Positions 5,671 through 17,263 of a DNA stretch of 17,404 nt are shown here, piece after piece. The first letter of the stretch is position 1; the number at the start of each line of letters is the position of its first letter. This DNA is from Candidatus Asgardarchaeum abyssi (GTDB lineage Archaea > Asgardarchaeota > Asgardarchaeia > Asgardarchaeales > Asgardarchaeaceae), in contig JBECUL010000044.1 of assembly GCA_040225955.1 (NCBI GenBank), forward strand, positions 1 to 17,404. The letters are read 5' to 3'. A model generated the notes under the pieces. That model was not told the origin of the DNA. It ran no database searches and worked only from the letters and a program-made list of their open reading frames with translations. The translations under genes were made by a program, and so were the position numbers.

Positions 5671-5857
5671 ATGACCACAGCTATGTCTTCTTTATATAAG
5701 TTAAATAACATTCATCAGCATATATATCAAAATTGTTTTTCATTAAATTTACTGATAGAAAATTTAATTTAGAGAAGAAACGATATCATTTCTAGAACTT
5801 TCTATACTTTTTTCAAAGTTGAAGTGAAATATTATATATCTCAGGGTGATAAGCGAT

Positions 5858-6577
5858 ATGGATGATGCAGATTATGTCTTCATGGGGTTAATTAGTGCAG
5901 CACTCGCAGGATTATACTTTTTCCAAGAGTCAATTTTATGGTTGAGTGACCAATTCTTCTACTGGATGATTGATTTTGCATCCACATATGGTTATCTTGG
6001 GGCTTTTATAATTAGTATTTTTGGAAATTTTACAATAATTTTTCCAGTTCCATACAGCTTGGCAATATTTCTTCTTGGAGCAAGTCATCAAGTTGATCCT
6101 CTCATTCTCGGTCTAATATCTGGTCTTGGAGCTCAAATTGGAGAAATGTCTGCATATCTACTAGGGAGAGGTGTTAGCATAGCAGAGCTTGAAGAAAAAT
6201 ACGGAGATAAGTTTAAAAAGGTAAACAAAATGGTCGAAAATTATGGGTTTTGGACTATCATGATTTTTGCTGCAACACCATTACCAGACGATTTAGTGCT
6301 CATTCCAGCTGGGATAATAGGATATGATCTAAAAAAGACTATTATTGCTTGCTTAATAGGAAAGGTAATATTAACCACATTTTTAGCGTATGCGGGATAT
6401 TACAGCATGGAAATTGTTGCTCAATTCTTTAGTGAAAGCGGATCTCTTGGAATGTTCATAAGCCTCATAGGAATCATAGTAATATCCTATTTGCTCATAA
6501 AGGTTGATTGGATTAAAGTAATGGAAAGATTGGAACAAATGAGGCAGAATATTATCGGAAAAGTAGTAAAAAGCTAA
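5858..6577 (+). CDS. DedA/VTT (SNARE-associated) family membrane protein
   Basis: YGYLGAFIIS..IFPVPY, GLGAQIGEMSAYLLGRG, YGFWTIMIFAATPLPDDLVLIPAGIIGY, LIGK. GGTGAT at 5845-5850 favours ATG 5858 as start. Confidence 0.9.
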   Translation: MDDADYVFMGLISAALAGLYFFQESILWLSDQFFYWMIDFASTYGYLGAFIISIFGNFTIIFPVPYSLAIFLLGASHQVDPLILGLISGLGAQIGEMSAYLLGRGVSIAELEEKYGDKFKKVNKMVENYGFWTIMIFAATPLPDDLVLIPAGIIGYDLKKTIIACLIGKVILTTFLAYAGYYSMEIVAQFFSESGSLGMFISLIGIIVISYLLIKVDWIKVMERLEQMRQNIIGKVVKS

Positions 6578-6714
6578 TCTAATTTTATTATTTTTTAGAA
6601 TCTATGCCATAAACATGTAAAACTCATAGAAATGTTCATATATTTTATCTTCTCATCATTATATAATGTTGTACTAATTATAAGATTTCTTTTAACGGCA
6701 TTGTGGGGTTGCTT

Positions 6715-9700
6715 ATGAAAGTAAAAGTAGCTTTATTATCAGCTATATTTTTAATACTTCTAATAGCACCGCTAGCAACAAATTCTTGGCTTTTTACAAG
6801 CGTAAAAACTCCTTCAGATAGCTTATTTCAAAGCTCAGTCGAGAAAGAGGAGGATCATGCAACACCGAGTATTCATACGAATCAAGACGAATTTGAAAAC
6901 TTAACAGCAATTAAAATAAAGTATCCATATTCATATGCTTTCAGCTATACAACTTTGGGGAACTTCAAAGATGGTGCTGAACTAGAAGTCGCTGGAATTA
7001 AATCAGAGTATGGCTATGTTTGCTTTTTCGACATCGCAACAAAAACGATTTTTGCTATTAATAATGATACTAAAGGTGATCGATTTATAAATGGAATCGC
7101 TATAGCAACTGCAAATCTCGATTCAGACGATTACGATGAAGTATTTTATATGAATGTCTCAGGTTATATTTTTCTAATAGATAATAATGCCACCACACTT
7201 AAAATGTTAAGATTGCAGTTATCTGATAAAATTGGAGAGGTTTACCGATTAATAATTACTGACTTAAACCTTGACAATTATGATGATATAGTAGTGTATG
7301 GAAGGACATATAGTGAGGATTTTGTAGCAGCTATTAATGGGGATTCTCAAAGCTTTCTTTTCAATTTTACGATGTCTCAGTATGCTATTCGTGGAGTTAC
7401 TGTAGGTAACTTTGATAATAGCCCAGGATTAGAAATTGCTATCGCTTATAATAACAATACAGTTGCTATATATACGCCTTCACTATCATTAATTCGAAGA
7501 GCAAACGTTTTAGAATCAATATATTCTCTTTATACGATTAGCAATTCCTCATGGCATTATGATGCGTTAATTTTATTATGCTTAGATGTTGCAGGCAGTA
7601 TTAAAATATATAATGCCACTACGCTTACAAATATGGGCTATCAAGCAAATATAGGTTCTTGTACACCAGAAATTGCTGTAACTGGCGATTTTGATGCAGA
7701 TTCATCCACAGAAATTGCAATTACTACATGGACTACTGGAGAGGCGGGCCTTGTAATTTTTGATCTGAACACAAATAACATTACAAAAGCAATGATACTC
7801 TTTAATGTACCTATAATTGCTATAAATTCGGGGAAAATCACAGCCGATGATACTGACGACTTAGTAGTTTCATCATCGGAAGAATCATATGTATTTAAGG
7901 GTGTACGTAGTCAAAAAGCAAATATAGCTTTCCTGAGAAAGATTGATGAGCCAACGTATATCCATAAAGTTTCTATAGCTCAGTATGATACAGGTCTAAT
8001 GGATGTATTTATTCATACAACTAAATACTTGTATATTTATAGATCAGATTCAAAACCACCACGTGTTTATGATGTGAGAACATATCCTATTAGACCGACA
8101 GTCGAGGATAGTTTCTTTTATGTATCTGCGTTAGTGATGGATGAAAGTGAATTTAGTGATCCCTTGTTGACCTACAACTTTACATCACTCGATGGCACGC
8201 TTATATACACAAATATGAAGAAAACCATGGCACCAGAGTCACATGCAAGCAACACCTATTTAGCATACTTCTTCGATTTATCTCCGGGGGTTTATACGTT
8301 CAAAATCAAAGTTGTTGATGGTTATGATAACATAGCAGTTTTTGACAATAATGGGTCGATGTATAGTGTTACGATTTATAGCAAGCGAATATTCAAACAC
8401 AAGCTTCAAAATGATTTTATTCGATCAGCACATCCAATCGATGTTGGAGAAATAGATGGACAATCTTTCTCTGAGGTGGCTGTAGCATTAAATGAGAATA
8501 TAACAATTGTCTGGGGTAATAATTCCATATCAGCACCCATTACATATGCGAATGCTGATTACGCACAAGTCTACTTAGAAGACATAGATGGTGTCCCTGG
8601 TGATGATATAATTCTCTATTGTTACAATACATCAATTTCAGCATATCAGATTAAAGTTTTTTCTGGTTCCACATTTAGTCTGATTCTTAAACGTACATAT
8701 TTATCTGAAATAAGTAAATTCGCATTTGGCGACATTGATAGCGATGGCATAAATGAGATTATTTTAGTTGAGAATATCAACTCAACAACGAATAGACTTA
8801 TTGCAATTGATATACTAACAAATACCACTATTATCGAGTATTATGTCCCGCAAGTCTTTTGCCTTGGTGTCTATAATGTAACCTTAGATTCATATATGGA
8901 TATTGCAATCCTTACTGTTGGTCAAAATAGTCTGAGCTTCAATTTGACAGTGTTTGCTGGTGAAAATAATCTTAAGCAACTTTATTCATACAACTCATCG
9001 GTGAATTATGCGATTTATGAAGCTTATTTGTTTATGGATACTTTTGTCACTTCCAACTATTCTCAATTTGTTATAGCGATCGGAGCAGGTACTGGCCTAG
9101 TGTATATTATTAATGCAACGAATGGAGTTTATATTTCAGGAAGTACTCTTACTTATCTGACTGGTTTAGCAGTTGTTGACTGTAATTATGATGGTCTCAA
9201 AGAATTATCATTTTTGCTATATGATAATACATTGATGGTGGTTGATATTGCTCGAAATATGACTTTACTAACTAAAAAAACGTTACTGCCAAGCACCCCT
9301 CTTGCAGTTTTTTGGACAAACTTTGATGAAGACTCCTATGAAGACCTAGTATACGTTTTGCCAGATTCTATTGCTATTTATTCCTTAATTAATGACCGTT
9401 ATGAAATTGTACCTTTCCCATTTAGAGTGATAGTTGCCTCAGCAGTTGGTGACTTCTTTGAACTGCCAAGTAATGATATATGCATTTTATCAGAAGACAG
9501 TGTACTTGAAAAATACATTAATATTAATATGTTTTACAGAGCTAACGTTAGCGTAACTATTAGCAGTTCTACAGTTGTTCAGGGTGGATCTATTGATGTT
9601 AAAGTCTATGTAGAAAATGTTTTTAACGATCCAATAACTGAAAGTGATATAACAGCATTTCTGATTTTTAATGATACCATTTTGCAGTCTTCTAGCTTTA

Positions 9701-11601
9701 CATCCCATAAAAATGGAAGCTACACACTCACTCTGAGTGCTGTTAATATACCAATTGGGAACTATACTCTTGTTACAATAGTAAATGACGCATATTATGG
9801 CATATACTTAAATAGCTATAATATAACGGTAAAAGGAGAAATCGAAGCAGTAATATCTGTACCTGAGACTGTAATAAGAGGGGGACCACTGCTCATAAAT
9901 GTAACCTTAATAGATCAGTATGGATTTCCAGTAATTAACGCTAATGTTACTGCGTCTATAGAAGGCGAAATTCACCATCCAGTAGAGGTTGTTAGAAACA
10001 TGTATTTATTCTTAATAAACACAGAGAACTTAACAGTAGGTAGTCGTGATATCATAATAATGGCTAATCACAGTTTTGCGATAATGCAGTTGCAGATTCC
10101 ATCGAGTATTAATATTATAGGAATTCCTCACATTGAAATAAAGGGTAGAGGAATTACAGAATCTCCAGTTATTCAAGGAGAATCGTTTTCCGTTAGATTA
10201 ACATTGTATGATAACTATCAGACACCTGTTGCTGGAGGAAGAATTACCGCATATTTCTTCGGCAGACCATACACGTTTACAGACCTAGGAAATGGTACTT
10301 ACATTGTAACAATATCTACTCAAGATATCCCTGGAGGAAACCACTCATTATTAATCGAAGTTACTCATGATTTCCTAGAAAAGAGCTTCTTCTCAGCTAA
10401 TGTGACTATAATTGGTGTGCCAAATATTAATTTGCAAATCTCACCTGCAATCATTGTGCAACAGTCGATAATGAATGTAACAATAACTGCTACCGATATT
10501 TTTGGTTATCCAATATCTGGTGCTAATGTTGTAGTCTCTTTTGCTGGTAGGAACTTTGTTGCTGAGAACATTCATGATAATGTCTATATTGCTATGATTA
10601 ATGTAGGGAATATTCATCATGGCGAATATGAAATATCGGTGAGATTTACTGCTGCTTATCATCAAGAAATAGAAGTTTCAGAATATATTTTTGTATATCC
10701 TCAAATTCCAAAACTTGATCTATCACCTAGGGCATTAATGATGCTTCTCGGAATATCAATAGGTGCATCATTTGTTGGTTTAATAATTTACTACAATATT
10801 TCATCAAGGCTTGTTAGAAGCTTCTCGGTGGACGAGCAAGGAAAACTTATTATGAGCTTTAAACCACTTGACACGTTATACTATTTCTTTACAGCATTGC
10901 TTTTCATAACAATAATCGTTGCTGCTAATTTATATCGCATGCATCTCTATGAGGCATCTGTAGCAGCTCTTGGATTAGCATTGGTGGAGATACTTTTAGT
11001 TCATGGAATTTGGCTCTATAGGGATACAGCGTATACATTAATAAATGAGAAATTGCCGATCATTAGAATGCTTATAGGGCTTTGGCACCTAATTCTAGCA
11101 CCGATAATAATTTTTGGAATCTTCATATGGGGTATCAACATTGAATGGTTCTCATTCTATCTATTGAAGGATGTCATAAATATAGGCGGATTGATACTGC
11201 CGTCACTGTATGTTAGCTTAATGGGCACATATGTGACATCAATTATCGTCTTAACAATAAATATCTATCTCAATTCAAGAAGTCTTAAGAATCGCTTTAG
11301 CGAAATGAGAGATAGTGGAACACCAGAAAAAGTGATTAACGAAGAGAAAGTAATACAGCTTGATAAAATGTCTGGCTCTATAAGAATAAAGTTCTTTGTA
11401 TTCCTAGCAATATTGGGTGCCAGCATAGTCACAACAGCAACGCCACTATTACAATACTATCAACTAGGTGTTGTTGTGGTATTGCCTCTCATATTTATAG
11501 TTGTTGTACCATATATAATTTCGAAAGTTCTAAAAGCCCTTGGATTCGCAAGACGAGTAATAAAGAAAATTACAGTAGTATCACAGTCGCAATCTCAATG
11601 A
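6715..11601 (+). CDS. Giant cell-surface protein: signal peptide, FG-GAP-like propeller, Ig-like domain, second FG-GAP-like propeller, 4 Ig-like repeats, ~7-TM membrane domain
   Basis: Signal MKVKVALLSAIFLILLIAPLA; many D/N-x-D-x-D-like loops (NLDSDDYDEV, DLNLDNYDDIV, GDFDADSSTEI, GDIDSDGINEI, DCNYDGLKEL, NFDEDSYEDL); four ~95-aa repeats; seven hydrophobic segments at 10732-11520; dense N-x-S/T sequons in the ectodomain. Confidence 0.88.
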   Translation: MKVKVALLSAIFLILLIAPLATNSWLFTSVKTPSDSLFQSSVEKEEDHATPSIHTNQDEFENLTAIKIKYPYSYAFSYTTLGNFKDGAELEVAGIKSEYGYVCFFDIATKTIFAINNDTKGDRFINGIAIATANLDSDDYDEVFYMNVSGYIFLIDNNATTLKMLRLQLSDKIGEVYRLIITDLNLDNYDDIVVYGRTYSEDFVAAINGDSQSFLFNFTMSQYAIRGVTVGNFDNSPGLEIAIAYNNNTVAIYTPSLSLIRRANVLESIYSLYTISNSSWHYDALILLCLDVAGSIKIYNATTLTNMGYQANIGSCTPEIAVTGDFDADSSTEIAITTWTTGEAGLVIFDLNTNNITKAMILFNVPIIAINSGKITADDTDDLVVSSSEESYVFKGVRSQKANIAFLRKIDEPTYIHKVSIAQYDTGLMDVFIHTTKYLYIYRSDSKPPRVYDVRTYPIRPTVEDSFFYVSALVMDESEFSDPLLTYNFTSLDGTLIYTNMKKTMAPESHASNTYLAYFFDLSPGVYTFKIKVVDGYDNIAVFDNNGSMYSVTIYSKRIFKHKLQNDFIRSAHPIDVGEIDGQSFSEVAVALNENITIVWGNNSISAPITYANADYAQVYLEDIDGVPGDDIILYCYNTSISAYQIKVFSGSTFSLILKRTYLSEISKFAFGDIDSDGINEIILVENINSTTNRLIAIDILTNTTIIEYYVPQVFCLGVYNVTLDSYMDIAILTVGQNSLSFNLTVFAGENNLKQLYSYNSSVNYAIYEAYLFMDTFVTSNYSQFVIAIGAGTGLVYIINATNGVYISGSTLTYLTGLAVVDCNYDGLKELSFLLYDNTLMVVDIARNMTLLTKKTLLPSTPLAVFWTNFDEDSYEDLVYVLPDSIAIYSLINDRYEIVPFPFRVIVASAVGDFFELPSNDICILSEDSVLEKYININMFYRANVSVTISSSTVVQGGSIDVKVYVENVFNDPITESDITAFLIFNDTILQSSSFTSHKNGSYTLTLSAVNIPIGNYTLVTIVNDAYYGIYLNSYNITVKGEIEAVISVPETVIRGGPLLINVTLIDQYGFPVINANVTASIEGEIHHPVEVVRNMYLFLINTENLTVGSRDIIIMANHSFAIMQLQIPSSINIIGIPHIEIKGRGITESPVIQGESFSVRLTLYDNYQTPVAGGRITAYFFGRPYTFTDLGNGTYIVTISTQDIPGGNHSLLIEVTHDFLEKSFFSANVTIIGVPNINLQISPAIIVQQSIMNVTITATDIFGYPISGANVVVSFAGRNFVAENIHDNVYIAMINVGNIHHGEYEISVRFTAAYHQEIEVSEYIFVYPQIPKLDLSPRALMMLLGISIGASFVGLIIYYNISSRLVRSFSVDEQGKLIMSFKPLDTLYYFFTALLFITIIVAANLYRMHLYEASVAALGLALVEILLVHGIWLYRDTAYTLINEKLPIIRMLIGLWHLILAPIIIFGIFIWGINIEWFSFYLLKDVINIGGLILPSLYVSLMGTYVTSIIVLTINIYLNSRSLKNRFSEMRDSGTPEKVINEEKVIQLDKMSGSIRIKFFVFLAILGASIVTTATPLLQYYQLGVVVVLPLIFIVVVPYIISKVLKALGFARRVIKKITVVSQSQSQ
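9541..10698 (+). repeat. Four tandem Ig-like protein repeats (9541-9837, 9838-10122, 10123-10416, 10417-10698)
   Basis: Shared pattern V-x-Q/R-G..V/L..D/N-x-Y/F-x-x-P-I/V..A-N-V..N-G-x-Y..I..G-x-Y/H..I-x-I/V-x-G. Clear at protein level, diverged at DNA level. Confidence 0.8.
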
Positions 11602-11616
11602 TCTTTTTTATTTTTG
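11601..11616 (+). terminator. Oligo-T terminator after the giant gene
   Basis: TCTTTTTTATTTTT directly after the TGA stop. Confidence 0.5.
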
Positions 11617-11698
11617 CAATTTTTGATTAATCTGTTCCAATGACAACCTTATTATATATCTACAATCTCTATTGTACATTAGGCCGAGGAGGATTATT

Positions 11699-13087
11699 AT
11701 GATTGATCTGTCAAGAATAGTTAAATATCTCAACAAATTAAATGTCGACTTTGGAGACGTTAGATTTGAAAATAGACTTTTTTCAGAGATAAGAGTCGTT
11801 AATGGAAACATCAGAAGCATCTCTAAGAGTTTTCAAAGTGGAATTAGTATCAGGGCTTTGAAAAAAGGTGCTTGGGGTTATTCTTCAACAACTAATCTTT
11901 CATGGGAAAATATAAAATCGAAAGCAGAGGAAGCCTATAGACTTGCAAAGGTAGCTTCTGAGAAACAAAAACGTACAACCAAAATTGAACTTGATATAAA
12001 ACCAATTGTTAAACACTTGAAACCAAATATAAAGAAAAACCCGGCTGACATTTCAATGGAGGATAAATTGAGTCTCCTCTTTGACCTTGATGACATTCAA
12101 AGAAAGTTCGATTCAAGAATTGTTAATAGCAATACGGTATACCGAGAATCTGTAGTAGAAAACAAGTTTGCTAACACTATTGGAAGTGACCTAGAATGGA
12201 CCGAAGTGAGAGTGTCTCTTATGATCGCATCATTTGCCCGTGAGGAAGGTAAACTCCAATATTCCTATGATATGGAATCAGGAACAAAAGGATATGAGCT
12301 TATAGAGTCTATTGATCTCTCTGAATTTGGCTCAAAAGTACCAAAAGAGGCTATAGATTTATTATCTGCCGACAAACCACCATCTGGTGTTCTTACTGTT
12401 ATTGCAGATCCAAGTATAGCTGGGCTTCTTGCGCATGAAGTTATGGGGCATGCATCAGAGGCTGATGAGATTGTTAAACGAAGAAGTTTCCTAACAGATA
12501 TGGTCGGCAAGCAAGTTGCTAGCGAATTAATTACTATGATGGATGATGGAACAGTAGAAGGAGCCTACGGAAGCATACCTTTCGATAGTGAAGGAACACC
12601 TTCTGAAAGAACAGTTATAATTGAGAATGGTATATACAAGGGATATATGCATAGTCTTGAAACAGCAGCAATACTTGGAGCTAAGCCTACTGGAAATGGT
12701 CGTGCTCAAGATTTTAACCGAAGAGTTTGGGTTCGCATGAGAAATACCTTTTTCGAGGCTGGTGATTGGAACTTAGATGAGATGATCGAAGATACAAAAA
12801 GTGGATTGCTGGCTTTAAAAGCTGTTAGTGGTATGGAAGACCCTACTGGTGGAGGATTTGAAGCGAGAGCGCTGATGGGATATATAATCGAAAATGGTGA
12901 GAAGAAGAATCTTGTTAGGGCTTTAACGCTTACTGGCAAGGCTCTGGAAATATTAAAAACAGTGGACGCTGTAAGTAAAGACTTCAAACTGGATGGAGGA
13001 TTCTGTGGCAAGGGGGAAGAGGATTGGGTTCCTGTAACCACAGGAGGTGCTTATATTAGAGCGAGAATTATTGTAGGAGGCGGATAG
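11699..13087 (+). CDS. tldD: TldD family metalloprotease subunit
   Basis: GISIRAL..GAWGYSST, LAHEVMGHASEAD (HExxGH), FDSEGTP, PTGNGRAQ..VRMRNTFFEAG, GFCGKG..VPVTTGG. GAGGAGG at 11686-11692 supports ATG 11699. Confidence 0.93.
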   Translation: MIDLSRIVKYLNKLNVDFGDVRFENRLFSEIRVVNGNIRSISKSFQSGISIRALKKGAWGYSSTTNLSWENIKSKAEEAYRLAKVASEKQKRTTKIELDIKPIVKHLKPNIKKNPADISMEDKLSLLFDLDDIQRKFDSRIVNSNTVYRESVVENKFANTIGSDLEWTEVRVSLMIASFAREEGKLQYSYDMESGTKGYELIESIDLSEFGSKVPKEAIDLLSADKPPSGVLTVIADPSIAGLLAHEVMGHASEADEIVKRRSFLTDMVGKQVASELITMMDDGTVEGAYGSIPFDSEGTPSERTVIIENGIYKGYMHSLETAAILGAKPTGNGRAQDFNRRVWVRMRNTFFEAGDWNLDEMIEDTKSGLLALKAVSGMEDPTGGGFEARALMGYIIENGEKKNLVRALTLTGKALEILKTVDAVSKDFKLDGGFCGKGEEDWVPVTTGGAYIRARIIVGGG

Positions 13088-13088
13088 C

Positions 13089-14447
13089 ATGAGTGACATA
13101 TGGAAAATTGAAAGTATAAATGATAAGGCTTTGAAAATCGGATTAAAGGAAGGGGTTTCTCAAATTGAAGTATTTTCCATTAATGGACATATGCGAAATG
13201 TGTATGTTGAAAACAGTGAGATTCATTTGGCAACCGATAATTCATGGATGGGTCTGGGAGTAAAGGCTATTATTGGAAAAAGAGTAGGCTTTATCTCCGG
13301 GATAATATCAAAAGATGAGGATATAGAACGGATAGTAAAAGAAAGTATTTCACTTGCGAAAATTAGTCCTGAGGATAAGGATTTCAAAAGTTTACCTTCA
13401 CCAGCAAAAGTGCAAGGAATAAAAGATATTGGATATGATGAGAATATTGTTAGTACTTCCATGGATTATTTTATAGAATTTGCAAAAAATGTTGTAAGCG
13501 CTGCTGAACATGATGATGTAAAAGTTATGAATGGTCTTGTAAGAGTAAATAACTATACACTTTGCATATCAAATTCTCTGGGGATTAACCTAAGTAGAAG
13601 AGGGACATTCATATTTGTACATTTCCTAGCTAAAAAAGAGATAGCTGAGGGTGTTGAGAAGGTGTATTCTGCGATACTTAAAAATTTGGATCCTTCTAAA
13701 ATTGGAGAAGAACTGCACAGAAAAACCGTTATATCGGCTAAAGCAAAAGCGTTCAAAGGAGCCGAAAAAGTAACAACAATAATCAAACCATTAGAGTTAG
13801 AAGCACTAATAAACAGCACTGTTAGCTCAGCTGCTAGCGGTGAAAACATAAATAAGAAGAGAAGCGTCTGGCTTAATAAAATAGGTGAAAATGTAGCTTC
13901 GGAAATGTTAACAATTATTGATAATCCTTTCCTACCAGAAGGCCCTAGAAGCAGTCTATTTGATGATGAGGGGGTTCCAACAAAGAAAAAAGCGATAATT
14001 GAAAAAGGAGTTTTGAAATCGTATCTTTTCGACTCATATAACGCATATATAGCAAATGTCGAACCTACAGGAAATGGCTTTAGAATTGATACAAGAACCA
14101 TAGAAACGGCACATCAGAATCCAACATATTGTAGACCTTCTAACTTGGAAATATTACCAACCAGTAAAACTTTGGATGATCTAATAAGTGAAATAAAATT
14201 TGGTGTCCTTATTGAGAAATTTGCAGCTCCAATGGCTGACCCATATACTGGTAATTTCGGACTTGAGGTTAGAAGTGCTATTCTAATAGAGAATGGAGAA
14301 CTTACACAACCAATTAGGCACGCTCTACTAACGGGTAACTTTTATGAGGGTTTAAAGAACATATCAGGAATAGCAAATGATTCTCGTCTTATAGAGAACG
14401 TCAAGACTCCATCCATTCGCTTTGAAGGTTTTCAACTAGTAGGATAA
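13089..14447 (+). CDS. pmbA: PmbA/TldE family subunit
   Basis: Starts 1 nt after the tldD stop; GENVASEMLTIIDNP, FDDEGVPT, IIEKGVLKSYL, PTGNG, PSNLEI, TGNF, IENGEL; lacks HExxxH as expected for TldE. Confidence 0.9.
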   Translation: MSDIWKIESINDKALKIGLKEGVSQIEVFSINGHMRNVYVENSEIHLATDNSWMGLGVKAIIGKRVGFISGIISKDEDIERIVKESISLAKISPEDKDFKSLPSPAKVQGIKDIGYDENIVSTSMDYFIEFAKNVVSAAEHDDVKVMNGLVRVNNYTLCISNSLGINLSRRGTFIFVHFLAKKEIAEGVEKVYSAILKNLDPSKIGEELHRKTVISAKAKAFKGAEKVTTIIKPLELEALINSTVSSAASGENINKKRSVWLNKIGENVASEMLTIIDNPFLPEGPRSSLFDDEGVPTKKKAIIEKGVLKSYLFDSYNAYIANVEPTGNGFRIDTRTIETAHQNPTYCRPSNLEILPTSKTLDDLISEIKFGVLIEKFAAPMADPYTGNFGLEVRSAILIENGELTQPIRHALLTGNFYEGLKNISGIANDSRLIENVKTPSIRFEGFQLVG

Positions 14448-14478: not shown

Positions 14479-14883
14479 CTATGGTAATCTATTAAATCCA
14501 ACTTTATTAAAATGAGAATCAAAAGCAAATACATTTTTTATATTAAATAGTTCCATTATTGCAAAGCTTGTGCAATCAGTAAAACTTAATTTCAAGTCCT
14601 TAAACTTCTTAGCGTATTGCATAGCTTTTCTAAATATCGATTCGTCAACCCAGATTACTCTTATACTCTCGCTTTTTAACACCTTATCGAGAAAAGACAA
14701 TGCTGTAATAGCGTTTTTTCTGATTCGAAGTAAAGTATACGTCTCATCCAAAATATAATCACTTGTAATAAGAGTTCCGTATTTATTTTGCCTTAGTTCA
14801 TTTAAAAGTAGCCTTGCATGTTTGTGATTGATATCCGATGTAACCTCAAGCGCATAAAAAGCACTAGTATCTATGAAAATCAT
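14479..14883 (-). CDS. vapC: VapC PIN-domain toxin
   Basis: MIFIDTSAFYAL, TSDYILDETYT, LSFTDCTSFAIM, FAFDSHF: all four acidic PIN residues present. Start at ATG 14883 follows GGTGAG at the end of the antitoxin gene (ATG 14895 is an alternative). Confidence 0.92.
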   Translation of the reverse strand: MIFIDTSAFYALEVTSDINHKHARLLLNELRQNKYGTLITSDYILDETYTLLRIRKNAITALSFLDKVLKSESIRVIWVDESIFRKAMQYAKKFKDLKLSFTDCTSFAIMELFNIKNVFAFDSHFNKVGFNRLP

Positions 14884-14884
14884 T

Positions 14885-15115
14885 TCACTCACCATAAAGT
14901 ACTCTATCATGTTCCTCAGAGGTTTTTTCAATTTTCTTCTTATCATCTACTAAGGGGGGTTCAGTAAAAATAGGATCATTAGGATTGACCTCTTCTTCAA
15001 TAAGCTTCCTAATGGCTTCTCTGACTAATTCCTTTATACTTTTTTTTCTTTTCTTGGATAGTTGCTTTAGTAATTGATATTCTATTTCATTTAATGAAGT
15101 TTGAACAATTTTCAA
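14885..15115 (-). CDS. vapB: CopG/ribbon-helix-helix VapB-type antitoxin
   Basis: KIVQTSLNEIEYQLLKQLSKKRKKSIKELVREAIRKLI (RHH pattern), then DPIF and SEEHDRVLYGE tail; directly upstream of vapC. TTG 15115 with upstream GGTG preferred; ATG 15136 is an alternative. Confidence 0.85.
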   Translation of the reverse strand: MKIVQTSLNEIEYQLLKQLSKKRKKSIKELVREAIRKLIEEEVNPNDPIFTEPPLVDDKKKIEKTSEEHDRVLYGE

Positions 15116-15239
15116 ATCAATACACCATTTTTTCATTTTTCATCTTTAATGATTAATATTACATGTTTATTTTCTTTAATTTCCTTAAAATATTTTTTAT
15201 CCTTTTTCCTAATAATATAAGAATGAAGGTAAATAAACG

Positions 15240-15796: not shown

Positions 15797-16471
15797 ATGA
15801 GAGATGAAGTGATACGATATAAAGTATTTCCAATGCTTACTTGGCTCATTATAGTAATGACTTTAAGCGCATATACAGTATCAAAAGCTCTCGCTGGTGC
15901 TTTTGGCATTAAGGCTCAAAGTGTGGCAGAAGAGATTCTTCTAAACCCGTTTGGTTTAATTGCTATAACGATATTGTATTTCGTTTTCTTCGCTATTGCT
16001 TATTTTACAGCCAAGATTAAAATTGTTAACTTAATAACATCAACGATGTTTTCACTTATAATGGGTGCTGGTTTATTCGGAACAGTATTTTTTGTGGCAG
16101 ATTTTATAAGTGCCCAAATAGTTCCAGAAGCTCTTATATTGACATCAGGTGTATTTGTACTGGCAGTAATTTACCAATGGGTAATGAAGAAAGATTTATC
16201 ACACTGGACCTGGTGGCTGTTTTTCTTATTACTTGTAGCAATAGGATTAACAGTTGCAGAAATCTTTGTTCAAGCGAGTTGGTTCAGAATAGCTGTTGAT
16301 TTAGGAGTTGTGGTTCTTTTTGTGTTTATAGTCATGTATGATACGTATCTGATTAGAGAGCGGATTCCTGATGAAAAATGGATACTTGGGGTCTTAAACT
16401 TTTTCTTAGACTTTGCAAATATACTAATTAGAATAATAGCGATACTGATCGAAATATACAGCCAGAGCTAA
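15797..16471 (+). CDS. Bax inhibitor-1/YccA (TMBIM) family membrane protein
   Basis: About seven TM segments; EALILTSGVF, KKDLS, LFVFIVMYDT..I, LNFFLDFANILIRI. GGTGAT RBS at 15788-15793. Confidence 0.88.
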   Translation: MRDEVIRYKVFPMLTWLIIVMTLSAYTVSKALAGAFGIKAQSVAEEILLNPFGLIAITILYFVFFAIAYFTAKIKIVNLITSTMFSLIMGAGLFGTVFFVADFISAQIVPEALILTSGVFVLAVIYQWVMKKDLSHWTWWLFFLLLVAIGLTVAEIFVQASWFRIAVDLGVVVLFVFIVMYDTYLIRERIPDEKWILGVLNFFLDFANILIRIIAILIEIYSQS

Positions 16472-16565: not shown

Positions 16566-17043
16566 TTACTCTGCTTTAAATATTTTATCAAAGGTTTTCT
16601 TATCAGTATAAAATCCTAAATCAATTAAACGCTTATATAAAAAGCTAGGTGGCTCTCTCAAAATTCTTTTTTCGTACAGTTTCTTAAGGATCGAGAGGAC
16701 TCCAATAACTTCTAAACCTAGATCTCTAGCTAATTTCCGAGCTTTTTTATCGTCGAGTACTATAACTTTATTCTTCATAAAGGCTAAGAATATAGCCGAG
16801 GATTCACCAAGCCCGAGTCTAGGAAACCTCTTTCTAATATCTTCAATACTAATCTTACCTCACTAATAAGCCTAGTGAGCTCCACGTACACCTTATCCTT
16901 TTTCTTCTCTATTTCTTCAAGAACTCCACGAGGGACCTCTATTTTGTTAAATATATTGATTGCTTTTTCTAAAACACCCAGTTTAGCAATATTATAAGTG
17001 GTGATGAATTAAGTACTATTCTTAAAGACTCTTCTGTATGCAT
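16566..17043 (-). pseudogene. DUF3368-family PIN-like toxin, two frameshifts (near 16992 and 16858)
   Basis: Reconstructed in three frames: MHTEESLRIVLNSSPLI / IAKLGVLEKAINIFNKIEVPRGVLEEIEKKKDKVYVELTRLISE / GKISIEDIRKRFPRLGLGESSAIFLAFMKNKVIVLDDKKARKLARDLGLEVIGVLSIL. The ORF track shows only the last 70 aa. Confidence 0.88.
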
Positions 17044-17263
17044 CTAACTCCTCTCCAGCTTCTTCCTCATCAAGAACACTATATTTGATACCAAGTTTAT
17101 GCATAAGCATCCAAAGATCATCAATTCTTAAATCTAGAAGCTCAGCTGCCTTGCCCATAGAGATTTTACCGCTAAGGAGAAGACCTAAAACTAAGAATAA
17201 CCTCTCTTTGTCATGATAAGGCACACGCTCACGCTCAATAATCTGTTTAAGCTCTGCTGACAT
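17009..17263 (-). CDS. UPF0175-family antitoxin-like HTH protein
   Basis: GKISMGKAAELLDL..L.KLGI signature; overlaps the DUF3368 gene start; GGTG upstream. Confidence 0.87.
   Translation of the reverse strand: MSAELKQIIERERVPYHDKERLFLVLGLLLSGKISMGKAAELLDLRIDDLWMLMHKLGIKYSVLDEEEAGEELDAYRRVFKNST

Follow-up and report, generated by a model that had tools for sequence, protein, structure and literature searches.

A 17,404-nucleotide stretch of DNA from Candidatus Asgardarchaeum abyssi (contig JBECUL010000044.1; the whole stretch is referred to here as the window) carries a gene for a giant surface protein, P0001, which ends in a seven-helix membrane module that has neither a Pfam entry nor a recognisable fold. 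The module stands as an orphan, an undescribed family observed almost exclusively in Asgard archaea. Asgard archaea are the closest archaeal relatives of eukaryotes; they live in close physical partnerships, and models of eukaryote origin hinge on the ways in which these cells made contact with their partners and sensed them. A constant orphan seven-helix module joined to a variable adhesive head makes a specific and testable candidate for the machinery of cell contact in Asgard archaea, and the window contributes an Odin/Baldr-clade member of this family of surface proteins. The reading favoured here, at odds slightly better than even (a probability of about 0.55), is that P0001 acts at the cell surface as an adhesin or contact receptor, and that its orphan membrane base probably serves to dock a cytoplasmic partner, through which events outside the cell might be coupled to the inside. 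Residue numbers throughout refer to the 1,632-residue translation of P0001 from a GTG codon at position 6703.

The membrane module and its family

The module begins with an invariant linker proline (Pro1336), continues through seven transmembrane helices (TM1-TM7) and closes with a basic amphipathic tail. Its position and its three most conspicuous motifs are as follows.

10708..11598, + strand: orphan seven-helix membrane module, residues 1336-1632 (hydropathy, AlphaFold2, conservation map, positive-inside count)
11011..11025, + strand: WLYRD motif at the cytoplasmic end of TM3 (W1437, Y1439 and D1441 each at least 90% conserved in 48 sequences)
11317..11328, + strand: GTPE motif at the tip of the TM5-TM6 cytoplasmic helical hairpin (AlphaFold2 and conservation)
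11377..11391, + strand: SIRIK motif at the cytoplasmic start of TM6 (I1560, R1561 and K1563 each at least 90% conserved)

A first-pass annotation, made from the letters of this DNA, had read seven hydrophobic segments behind a large ectodomain and placed the amino terminus outside and the carboxy terminus inside (N-out/C-in) by the positive-inside rule. The same seven segments were recovered by Kyte-Doolittle hydropathy with a 19-residue span (residues 1343-1366, 1388-1413, 1415-1439, 1451-1483, 1497-1519, 1558-1584 and 1581-1616), and AlphaFold2, applied to residues 1325-1632 with a 48-sequence alignment, placed seven long helices at these positions, followed by a C-terminal tail helix (predicted local distance difference test [pLDDT] 83.6; predicted template modelling score [pTM] 0.79). 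The model has beta-hairpins in the first inside loop and the fourth outside loop, and its helices 5 and 6, of about 37 residues each (177-213 and 218-254 in domain numbering), project into the cytoplasm as a hairpin. Across the 48 family members the loops assigned to the inside carry a mean of 20.2 lysines and arginines versus 2.4 for the outside loops, with the inside count the larger in 48/48. With the N-terminal ectodomain secreted, there is good support for a topology of seven helices, N-out/C-in. Prediction of a homodimer from two copies of the module, with the same alignment, gave scores of 0.04 and 0.23 against the tool's mark of 0.42, which provides no verdict either way.

The module is the best-conserved part of the protein, and the conservation among homologues on which the first-pass annotation had staked its proposal is present: mean column identity is 43% in the module versus 18% across whole proteins. 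Conservation is strongest in TM3-TM7, and many of the conserved polar residues sit at the cytoplasmic membrane boundary. In addition to the residues of the WLYRD and SIRIK motifs these include Arg1455 and a Trp-His pair at the start of TM4 and Tyr1522 at the end of TM5, while the GTPE motif belongs to a wider pattern, M..GTPE.V...E, whose final residue (E1548, a few residues C-terminal of GTPE) is invariant. Also conserved are the prolines of TM4, TM5 and TM7, the linker Pro1336, the sequence IEWF in outside loop 4 and, at a level of at least 80%, a histidine in TM4 (H1462). Few intramembrane polar residues are kept family-wide, and the glutamate and histidine found in TM3 of P0001 are not conserved across the wider family. 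The C-terminal tail is basic throughout the family despite its variable sequence.

An exhaustive phmmer search with the module alone returned 110 representative clusters (50% identity), of which 38 score E<1e-30, with E reaching 1e-131 over module residues 5-301. In these clusters the module is nearly always C-terminal, in proteins of 1,300-2,460 amino acids, and it recurs behind different distal ectodomains, as the first-pass annotation had proposed to check. P0001 shows the traits of the family, in that its module aligns over the full length with WLYRD, IEWF, GTPE, SIRIK and the TM7 prolines, and follows a large secreted ectodomain that ends in immunoglobulin-like (Ig-like) repeats. The Ig stalk and module of P0001 match the whole family, with the Ig units multiplied elsewhere and repeated in Thor-type homologues; its two propellers are confined to a near clade of 9-11 proteins, and the distal domains of other members include FG-GAP, BNR, CarboxypepD_reg, Wzt_C and MG4. 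In a more distant Lokiarchaeota branch a double zinc ribbon follows immediately after TM7, which accords with the C-in topology and hints at a role in cytoplasmic interactions. No stand-alone module is known, since searches for short forms returned fragments only and the two short matches that were checked begin at a contig end.

Named carriers of the module are all Asgard archaea (Odin/Baldr, Thor, Njord and Loki/Promethearchaeota) with one exception. A pattern scan of 185,579 species genomes with a 12-row module alignment found 41 loci, 41/41 of them Asgard; these are mostly Thorarchaeota, together with Baldrarchaeota, Promethearchaeota and Njordarchaeota, and the Baldrarchaeota locus is 69% identical to the module of P0001. 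Named cluster members add Thorarchaeota and Lokiarchaeota, and the proteins nearest to P0001 carry Odinarchaeota and Asgardarchaeia labels (metagenome-assembled genomes, MAGs). The exception, the sole bacterial-labelled match (P0013, from a 'Latescibacterota' MAG), fills a contig of 4.4 kb and is probably mis-binned rather than a bacterial occurrence. Among 301 sampled genomes of the phylum, 72 have the module, in one to four copies each and in open frames of up to 2,992 amino acids; one taxonomic family carries it in 50/76 genomes, and several other families have none among the genomes searched. Some family copies in other Asgard genomes (G099:C191, G020:C5 and G020:C27) contain one in-frame TGA or TAG codon within the stretch that matches the module and could be pseudogenes, sequencing errors or cases of recoding.

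The proposal of an undescribed membrane family is supported by searches of sequence and fold. No Pfam model matches the module of P0001 at E<=1. At the same threshold the 48 module sequences matched 30 families, of which the best 25 are considered here; these matches are scattered and weak, among them DUF2178 in five members (best E 0.003) and HlyIII in two (E ~1e-3), and no 7tm, rhodopsin or 7TMR-DISM model is among the best 25 of the 30. A profile search of all PDB sequences with the module gave a best E of 0.2, with the beta-1 adrenergic receptor at E 3.3. The AlphaFold2 model found no confident match to a known family by Foldseek (best E 0.55, TM-score <=0.25), and in the ESM Atlas a shape search reached TM-scores of <=0.36 and a feature search yielded no usable match. 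The papers searched on Asgard FG-GAP, integrin, seven-transmembrane and surface proteins yielded no description of the family. For 'integrin repeat-containing' proteins of Asgard archaea another paper (PMC9258230) cites Liu et al. 2021; the preprint text of that study has zero occurrences of 'integrin', 'transmembrane' and 'surface protein'.

The ectodomain

The part of P0001 that precedes the module is predicted to be a secreted, all-beta structure with the following elements.

6715..6792, + strand: Sec-type signal peptide, two lysines followed by a 17-residue hydrophobic core (hydropathy; putative cleavage site)
6910..8085, + strand: beta-propeller 1, residues ~70-461 (AlphaFold2, all-beta, pLDDT 80-94; Foldseek; weak FG-GAP/FG-GAP_3 matches)
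8086..8382, + strand: Ig-like or beta-sandwich insert between the propellers, residues ~462-560 (AlphaFold2 strands)
8437..9414, + strand: beta-propeller 2, residues ~579-904 (AlphaFold2 model; motif search)
9538..10707, + strand: stalk of about four Ig-like (Big_1/invasin-type) domains, residues 946-1335 (Pfam and homologue comparison)

The signal peptide gives a Kyte-Doolittle peak of 2.55 at residues 7-25. AlphaFold2 models residues 40-950 (pLDDT 73.6) as two propeller-sized blocks separated by a small beta domain, within which lies a weak Y_Y_Y match at residues 516-542. Foldseek aligned this model with tandem-propeller proteins, among them DDB1 and SF3B130 (E ~1e-16), a match that confirms the predicted propellers and does not confirm a specific relationship to integrins. 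The calcium-loop motif [DN]x[DN]x[DN]xxx[DE] occurs six times in residues 55-950 versus 0.35 expected from shuffles: loop-like motifs lie at residues 138, 187 and 329 of propeller 1, canonical DxDxDGxxE-type loops at residues 677 and 826 of propeller 2, and one more loop-like motif at residue 873.

The description of the ectodomain as FG-GAP/Ig in the first-pass annotation is supported by AlphaFold2, by Foldseek and by the Pfam matches of homologues, which are significant (FG-GAP_3 6e-12, Big_1 3e-19, Invasin_D3 3e-17); the part that did not carry over is Pfam recognition in P0001 itself, where all matches fall below the cut-off. These comprise FG-GAP (E 0.0057), Invasin_D3 (E 8.7e-6) and weak Big_1, Ig_J and Y_Y_Y matches, and the propeller models PF01839 and PF13517 score 17.0 bits versus a cut-off of 22.1 and 12.5 versus 26.9, respectively. 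N-x-S/T sequons number 35 in the ectodomain versus 15.6 +/- 3.6 in shuffles, with one in the membrane module, a pattern which is that of an archaeal N-glycosylated surface protein and suggests that the ectodomain may be glycosylated.

Possible roles of the module and its likeness to known systems

According to the reading favoured here, the two calcium-type propellers would serve as a ligand-binding head and the roughly four Ig-like domains as a stalk, and the conserved N-out/C-in module would root this secreted and presumably heavily N-glycosylated protein in the membrane. The module would also present a docking surface to a cytoplasmic partner and so couple ectodomain binding outside to something inside. 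That the module does more than anchor the protein is suggested because a single helix would suffice as an anchor, because the module is the slowest-evolving part of the protein, and because its polar motifs are conserved on the cytoplasmic face. The first-pass annotation had proposed a contact-sensing receptor or an adhesion-gated transporter. The receptor-like layout holds up; the transporter has no family match behind it, and the signalling step is inferred.

Several observations weigh against docking of a partner. The annotation's statement that the protein has no cytoplasmic catalytic domain proved correct, and P0001 has no cytoplasmic output domain of its own. No cytoplasmic partner was identified, neighbouring genes differ between clades, and all-against-all clustering of open reading frames (ORFs) from 47 loci found no neighbour gene conserved across clades. 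Within the module, TM6-TM7 are modelled with a pLDDT of only 63-68, and loop 1 and the C-terminal tail are poorly conserved in sequence. The polar residues conserved where helices end might be needed for folding or for contact with lipids and not for docking. Finally, the public runs listed for the sampled words of the gene include no RNA run.

A more ambitious form of the favoured reading makes the module an Asgard-specific outside-in transducer, in which binding of a ligand or a partner cell by the variable ectodomain would shift the helical bundle and alter what is bound by the face formed by WLYRD, the GTPE hairpin and SIRIK. The numerous Asgard small GTPases of unexplained role, or cytoskeletal proteins, would be candidate partners, and the module would be an independent, non-homologous counterpart of adhesion G-protein-coupled receptors (GPCRs) and integrins. 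This form is quite unlikely to hold in full and is put forward tentatively.

A purely structural role, the main rival, has a real though minor chance of being correct. P0001 would then be an envelope glycoprotein, a glycocalyx or substitute for a surface layer (S-layer), with the seven helices as a stable root that perhaps packs laterally. The lack of an output domain and of a conserved partner gene fits such a coat, as do the one to four copies per genome, the variable distal domains and an ectodomain heavily enriched in sequons, in the manner of archaeal envelope glycoproteins. A passive anchor, however, has no need of polar motifs kept invariant on its cytoplasmic side or of a conserved helical hairpin in the cytoplasm, and it would not lead one to expect the zinc ribbon of the Loki branch or the slower evolution of the module relative to the ectodomain. 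Should the module turn out to be a mere anchor, it is still a new domain family, though one of modest interest.

It is doubtful that the module is a channel, a transporter or a membrane enzyme, for example one that handles lipid or glycan carriers, acting together with the ectodomain. The polytopic bundle, the conserved prolines, H1462 in TM4 and the IEWF sequence of outside loop 4 would be compatible with such an activity, and a VTT/DedA gene lies directly upstream in the window. Yet the fold and sequence searches with the module matched no transporter, channel or enzyme family, and hhalign found no internal 3+3 repeat (TM2-4 versus TM5-7, probability <2%). The scarcity of family-wide intramembrane polar residues, the lack of conservation of the TM3 glutamate and histidine, and the absence of the VTT neighbour from other loci likewise argue against it.

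It is very improbable that the module truly belongs, in highly diverged form, to a known seven-transmembrane family (GPCR, microbial rhodopsin, 7TMR-DISM or PAQR), in view of the Foldseek result, PDB profile matches at E of 0.2 and above, the absence of 7tm, rhodopsin and 7TMR-DISM models from the best 25 of the 30 Pfam families, and VIA-align superpositions in which GPCR-type entries deviate by a root-mean-square of 13-16 Å, inside the stated helical-bundle background, and rhodopsins by ~13 Å. Family by family, TM7 (residues 1588-1607) has no lysine, hence no retinal-type lysine, and no Bac_rhodopsin match is among the Pfam families listed; the module has no conserved histidine triad of the PAQR/HlyIII kind, and PAQR proteins have the opposite topology (N-in/C-out). 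As for ABC/FtsX permeases, no FtsX match (PF02687) is listed and no ATPase gene is adjacent in the window; at two compared loci (L002 and L003) FtsX is encoded separately, by a gene three positions upstream.

The resemblance to adhesion GPCRs (class B2, such as latrophilins and GPR56) is one of layout and not of detectable ancestry, and kinship with GPCRs is not supported. Like these receptors, the Asgard protein has a very large, presumably adhesive and glycosylated ectodomain followed by seven helices in N-out/C-in orientation; a long loop likewise separates helices 5 and 6, and charged motifs are conserved where helices 3 and 6 end on the cytoplasmic side. Unlike them, it has no GPS or GAIN match in Pfam at E<=1, the region before TM1 being Big_1/invasin-like, and no listed 7tm_2 match, and its predicted bundle shows no convincing superposition on that of GPCRs. 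The comparison is an analogy only. Archaea, moreover, are not known to possess a heterotrimeric G protein partner.

The integrin alpha plan that the first-pass annotation had seen in the ectodomain held in part. P0001 shares with integrin alpha and other FG-GAP proteins (PF01839/PF13517) a predicted propeller head with DxDxDG-type calcium loops on an Ig-like leg, but its best PDB sequence match to integrin alpha-6 reaches an E of only 0.074. Integrin alpha has one propeller, a single C-terminal transmembrane helix and a GFFKR-type tail, and pairs with a beta subunit, whereas the Asgard protein has two propellers, seven helices instead of one, no beta subunit and no talin-type tail motif; no neighbour resembling an integrin beta subunit occurs at the window locus or the compared loci. 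The membrane-proximal tandem of Big_1/Invasin_D3-like Ig domains recalls the stalk of bacterial invasin and intimin, with a weak profile match to an attaching-and-effacing protein (E 0.057), but those proteins are anchored by an N-terminal outer-membrane beta-barrel and the Asgard protein is rooted in an archaeal membrane by a C-terminal alpha-helical module. Bacterial 7TMR-DISM proteins (PF07695/PF07696) likewise join a prokaryotic extracellular sensor domain to seven helices, though they have cytoplasmic kinase, cyclase or phosphatase outputs that P0001 lacks. Archaeal S-layer and 'huge' surface glycoproteins share with P0001 the signal peptide, the sequon-rich and beta-rich ectodomain and the lineage-specific variability; they usually end in a single helix or a PGF-CTERM/archaeosortase signal, in contrast to the conserved polytopic module.

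The gene and its genomic neighbourhood

P0001 is encoded by a single intact ORF (6703-11601, + strand). The gene and its putative transcription signals are located as follows.

6668..6684, + strand: AT-rich TATA-like boxes, putative archaeal promoter (sequence reading; ~30-45 nucleotides 5' of the ATG)
6715..11601, + strand: surface-protein gene, 1,628 amino acids from ATG (alternative GTG at 6703, 1,632 amino acids)
11602..11626, + strand: oligo-T tracts, putative archaeal terminator (sequence reading; directly 3' of the stop codon)

The ATG at 6715 is likely the true start, because a 97%-identical database protein (P0003, 1,628 amino acids) begins there; the ESM Atlas record likewise starts at the methionine of this codon. 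The gene is probably its own transcription unit, given the TATA-like boxes upstream, an oligo-T run read 3' of the preceding VTT/DedA gene and the oligo-T tracts after the stop codon. More than half of the gene's sampled 31-letter words are present in eight sediment or vent metagenome runs from separate studies.

In the window the gene lies between a VTT/DedA gene on its 5' side and a TldD/PmbA pair on its 3' side. The VTT/DedA-family membrane protein gene (5846-6577, + strand) is directly upstream on the same strand, a pairing not seen at the other loci examined. DedA proteins are linked to the recycling of polyprenyl-phosphate carriers, a role that would suit the neighbour of a sequon-rich glycoprotein. 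The TldD/PmbA metalloprotease pair (11672-13087 and 13089-14447, + strand) has a G+C content of 0.36-0.40, higher than the rest of the window, and a strong positive GC skew.

Elsewhere the surroundings of the homologues vary by clade. In Baldr-like loci the giant gene is preceded by a CoA-ligase-type gene and followed by an AsnC regulator, and the locus of another clade has tRNA_SAD and acyltransferase genes as neighbours. A gene of the ADP-forming CoA-ligase type is the sole neighbour shared across clades; it lies upstream at loci of Thor and Baldr and is absent at the window locus. Thor loci have a convergent operon for a 546-residue zinc-ribbon membrane protein together with a CheY-like receiver (for example L038:6992-8632 and L012:8689-9123, both on the - strand), the receiver being a single-domain protein. 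The ~546-residue protein is conserved, with relatives in 26 Thor loci. It combines a signal peptide and several transmembrane helices with a zinc ribbon (CxxC...CxxC) on the cytoplasmic side and an acidic tail; its zinc ribbon recalls the one fused to the module in Lokiarchaeota, and a search with the Thor query did not find the protein in the Ca. Asgardarchaeum abyssi genome. At another locus a gene for an Arf/Gtr1-RagA-like small GTPase (L002:18067-18984, - strand) lies ~5 kb downstream of the homologue P0012.

The remaining genes of the window include several that may relate to mobile or toxin-antitoxin elements. A serine recombinase (resolvase with a MerR-type helix-turn-helix; 108-752, - strand) adjoins an AAA_14/DUF4143 ATPase gene (872-2275, + strand), and this pair at the contig edge may be a mobile-element remnant. 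A PIN-domain protein gene (14479-14946, - strand) is preceded by an overlapping 83-residue ribbon-helix-helix ORF (14885-15136, - strand), with which it probably forms a VapBC-type toxin-antitoxin pair, and a small UPF0175 ORF (17009-17263, - strand) is maybe another antitoxin-like gene. Between these lies a gene for a membrane protein of the Bax1-I/TMBIM family (15797-16471, + strand; E 2e-22).

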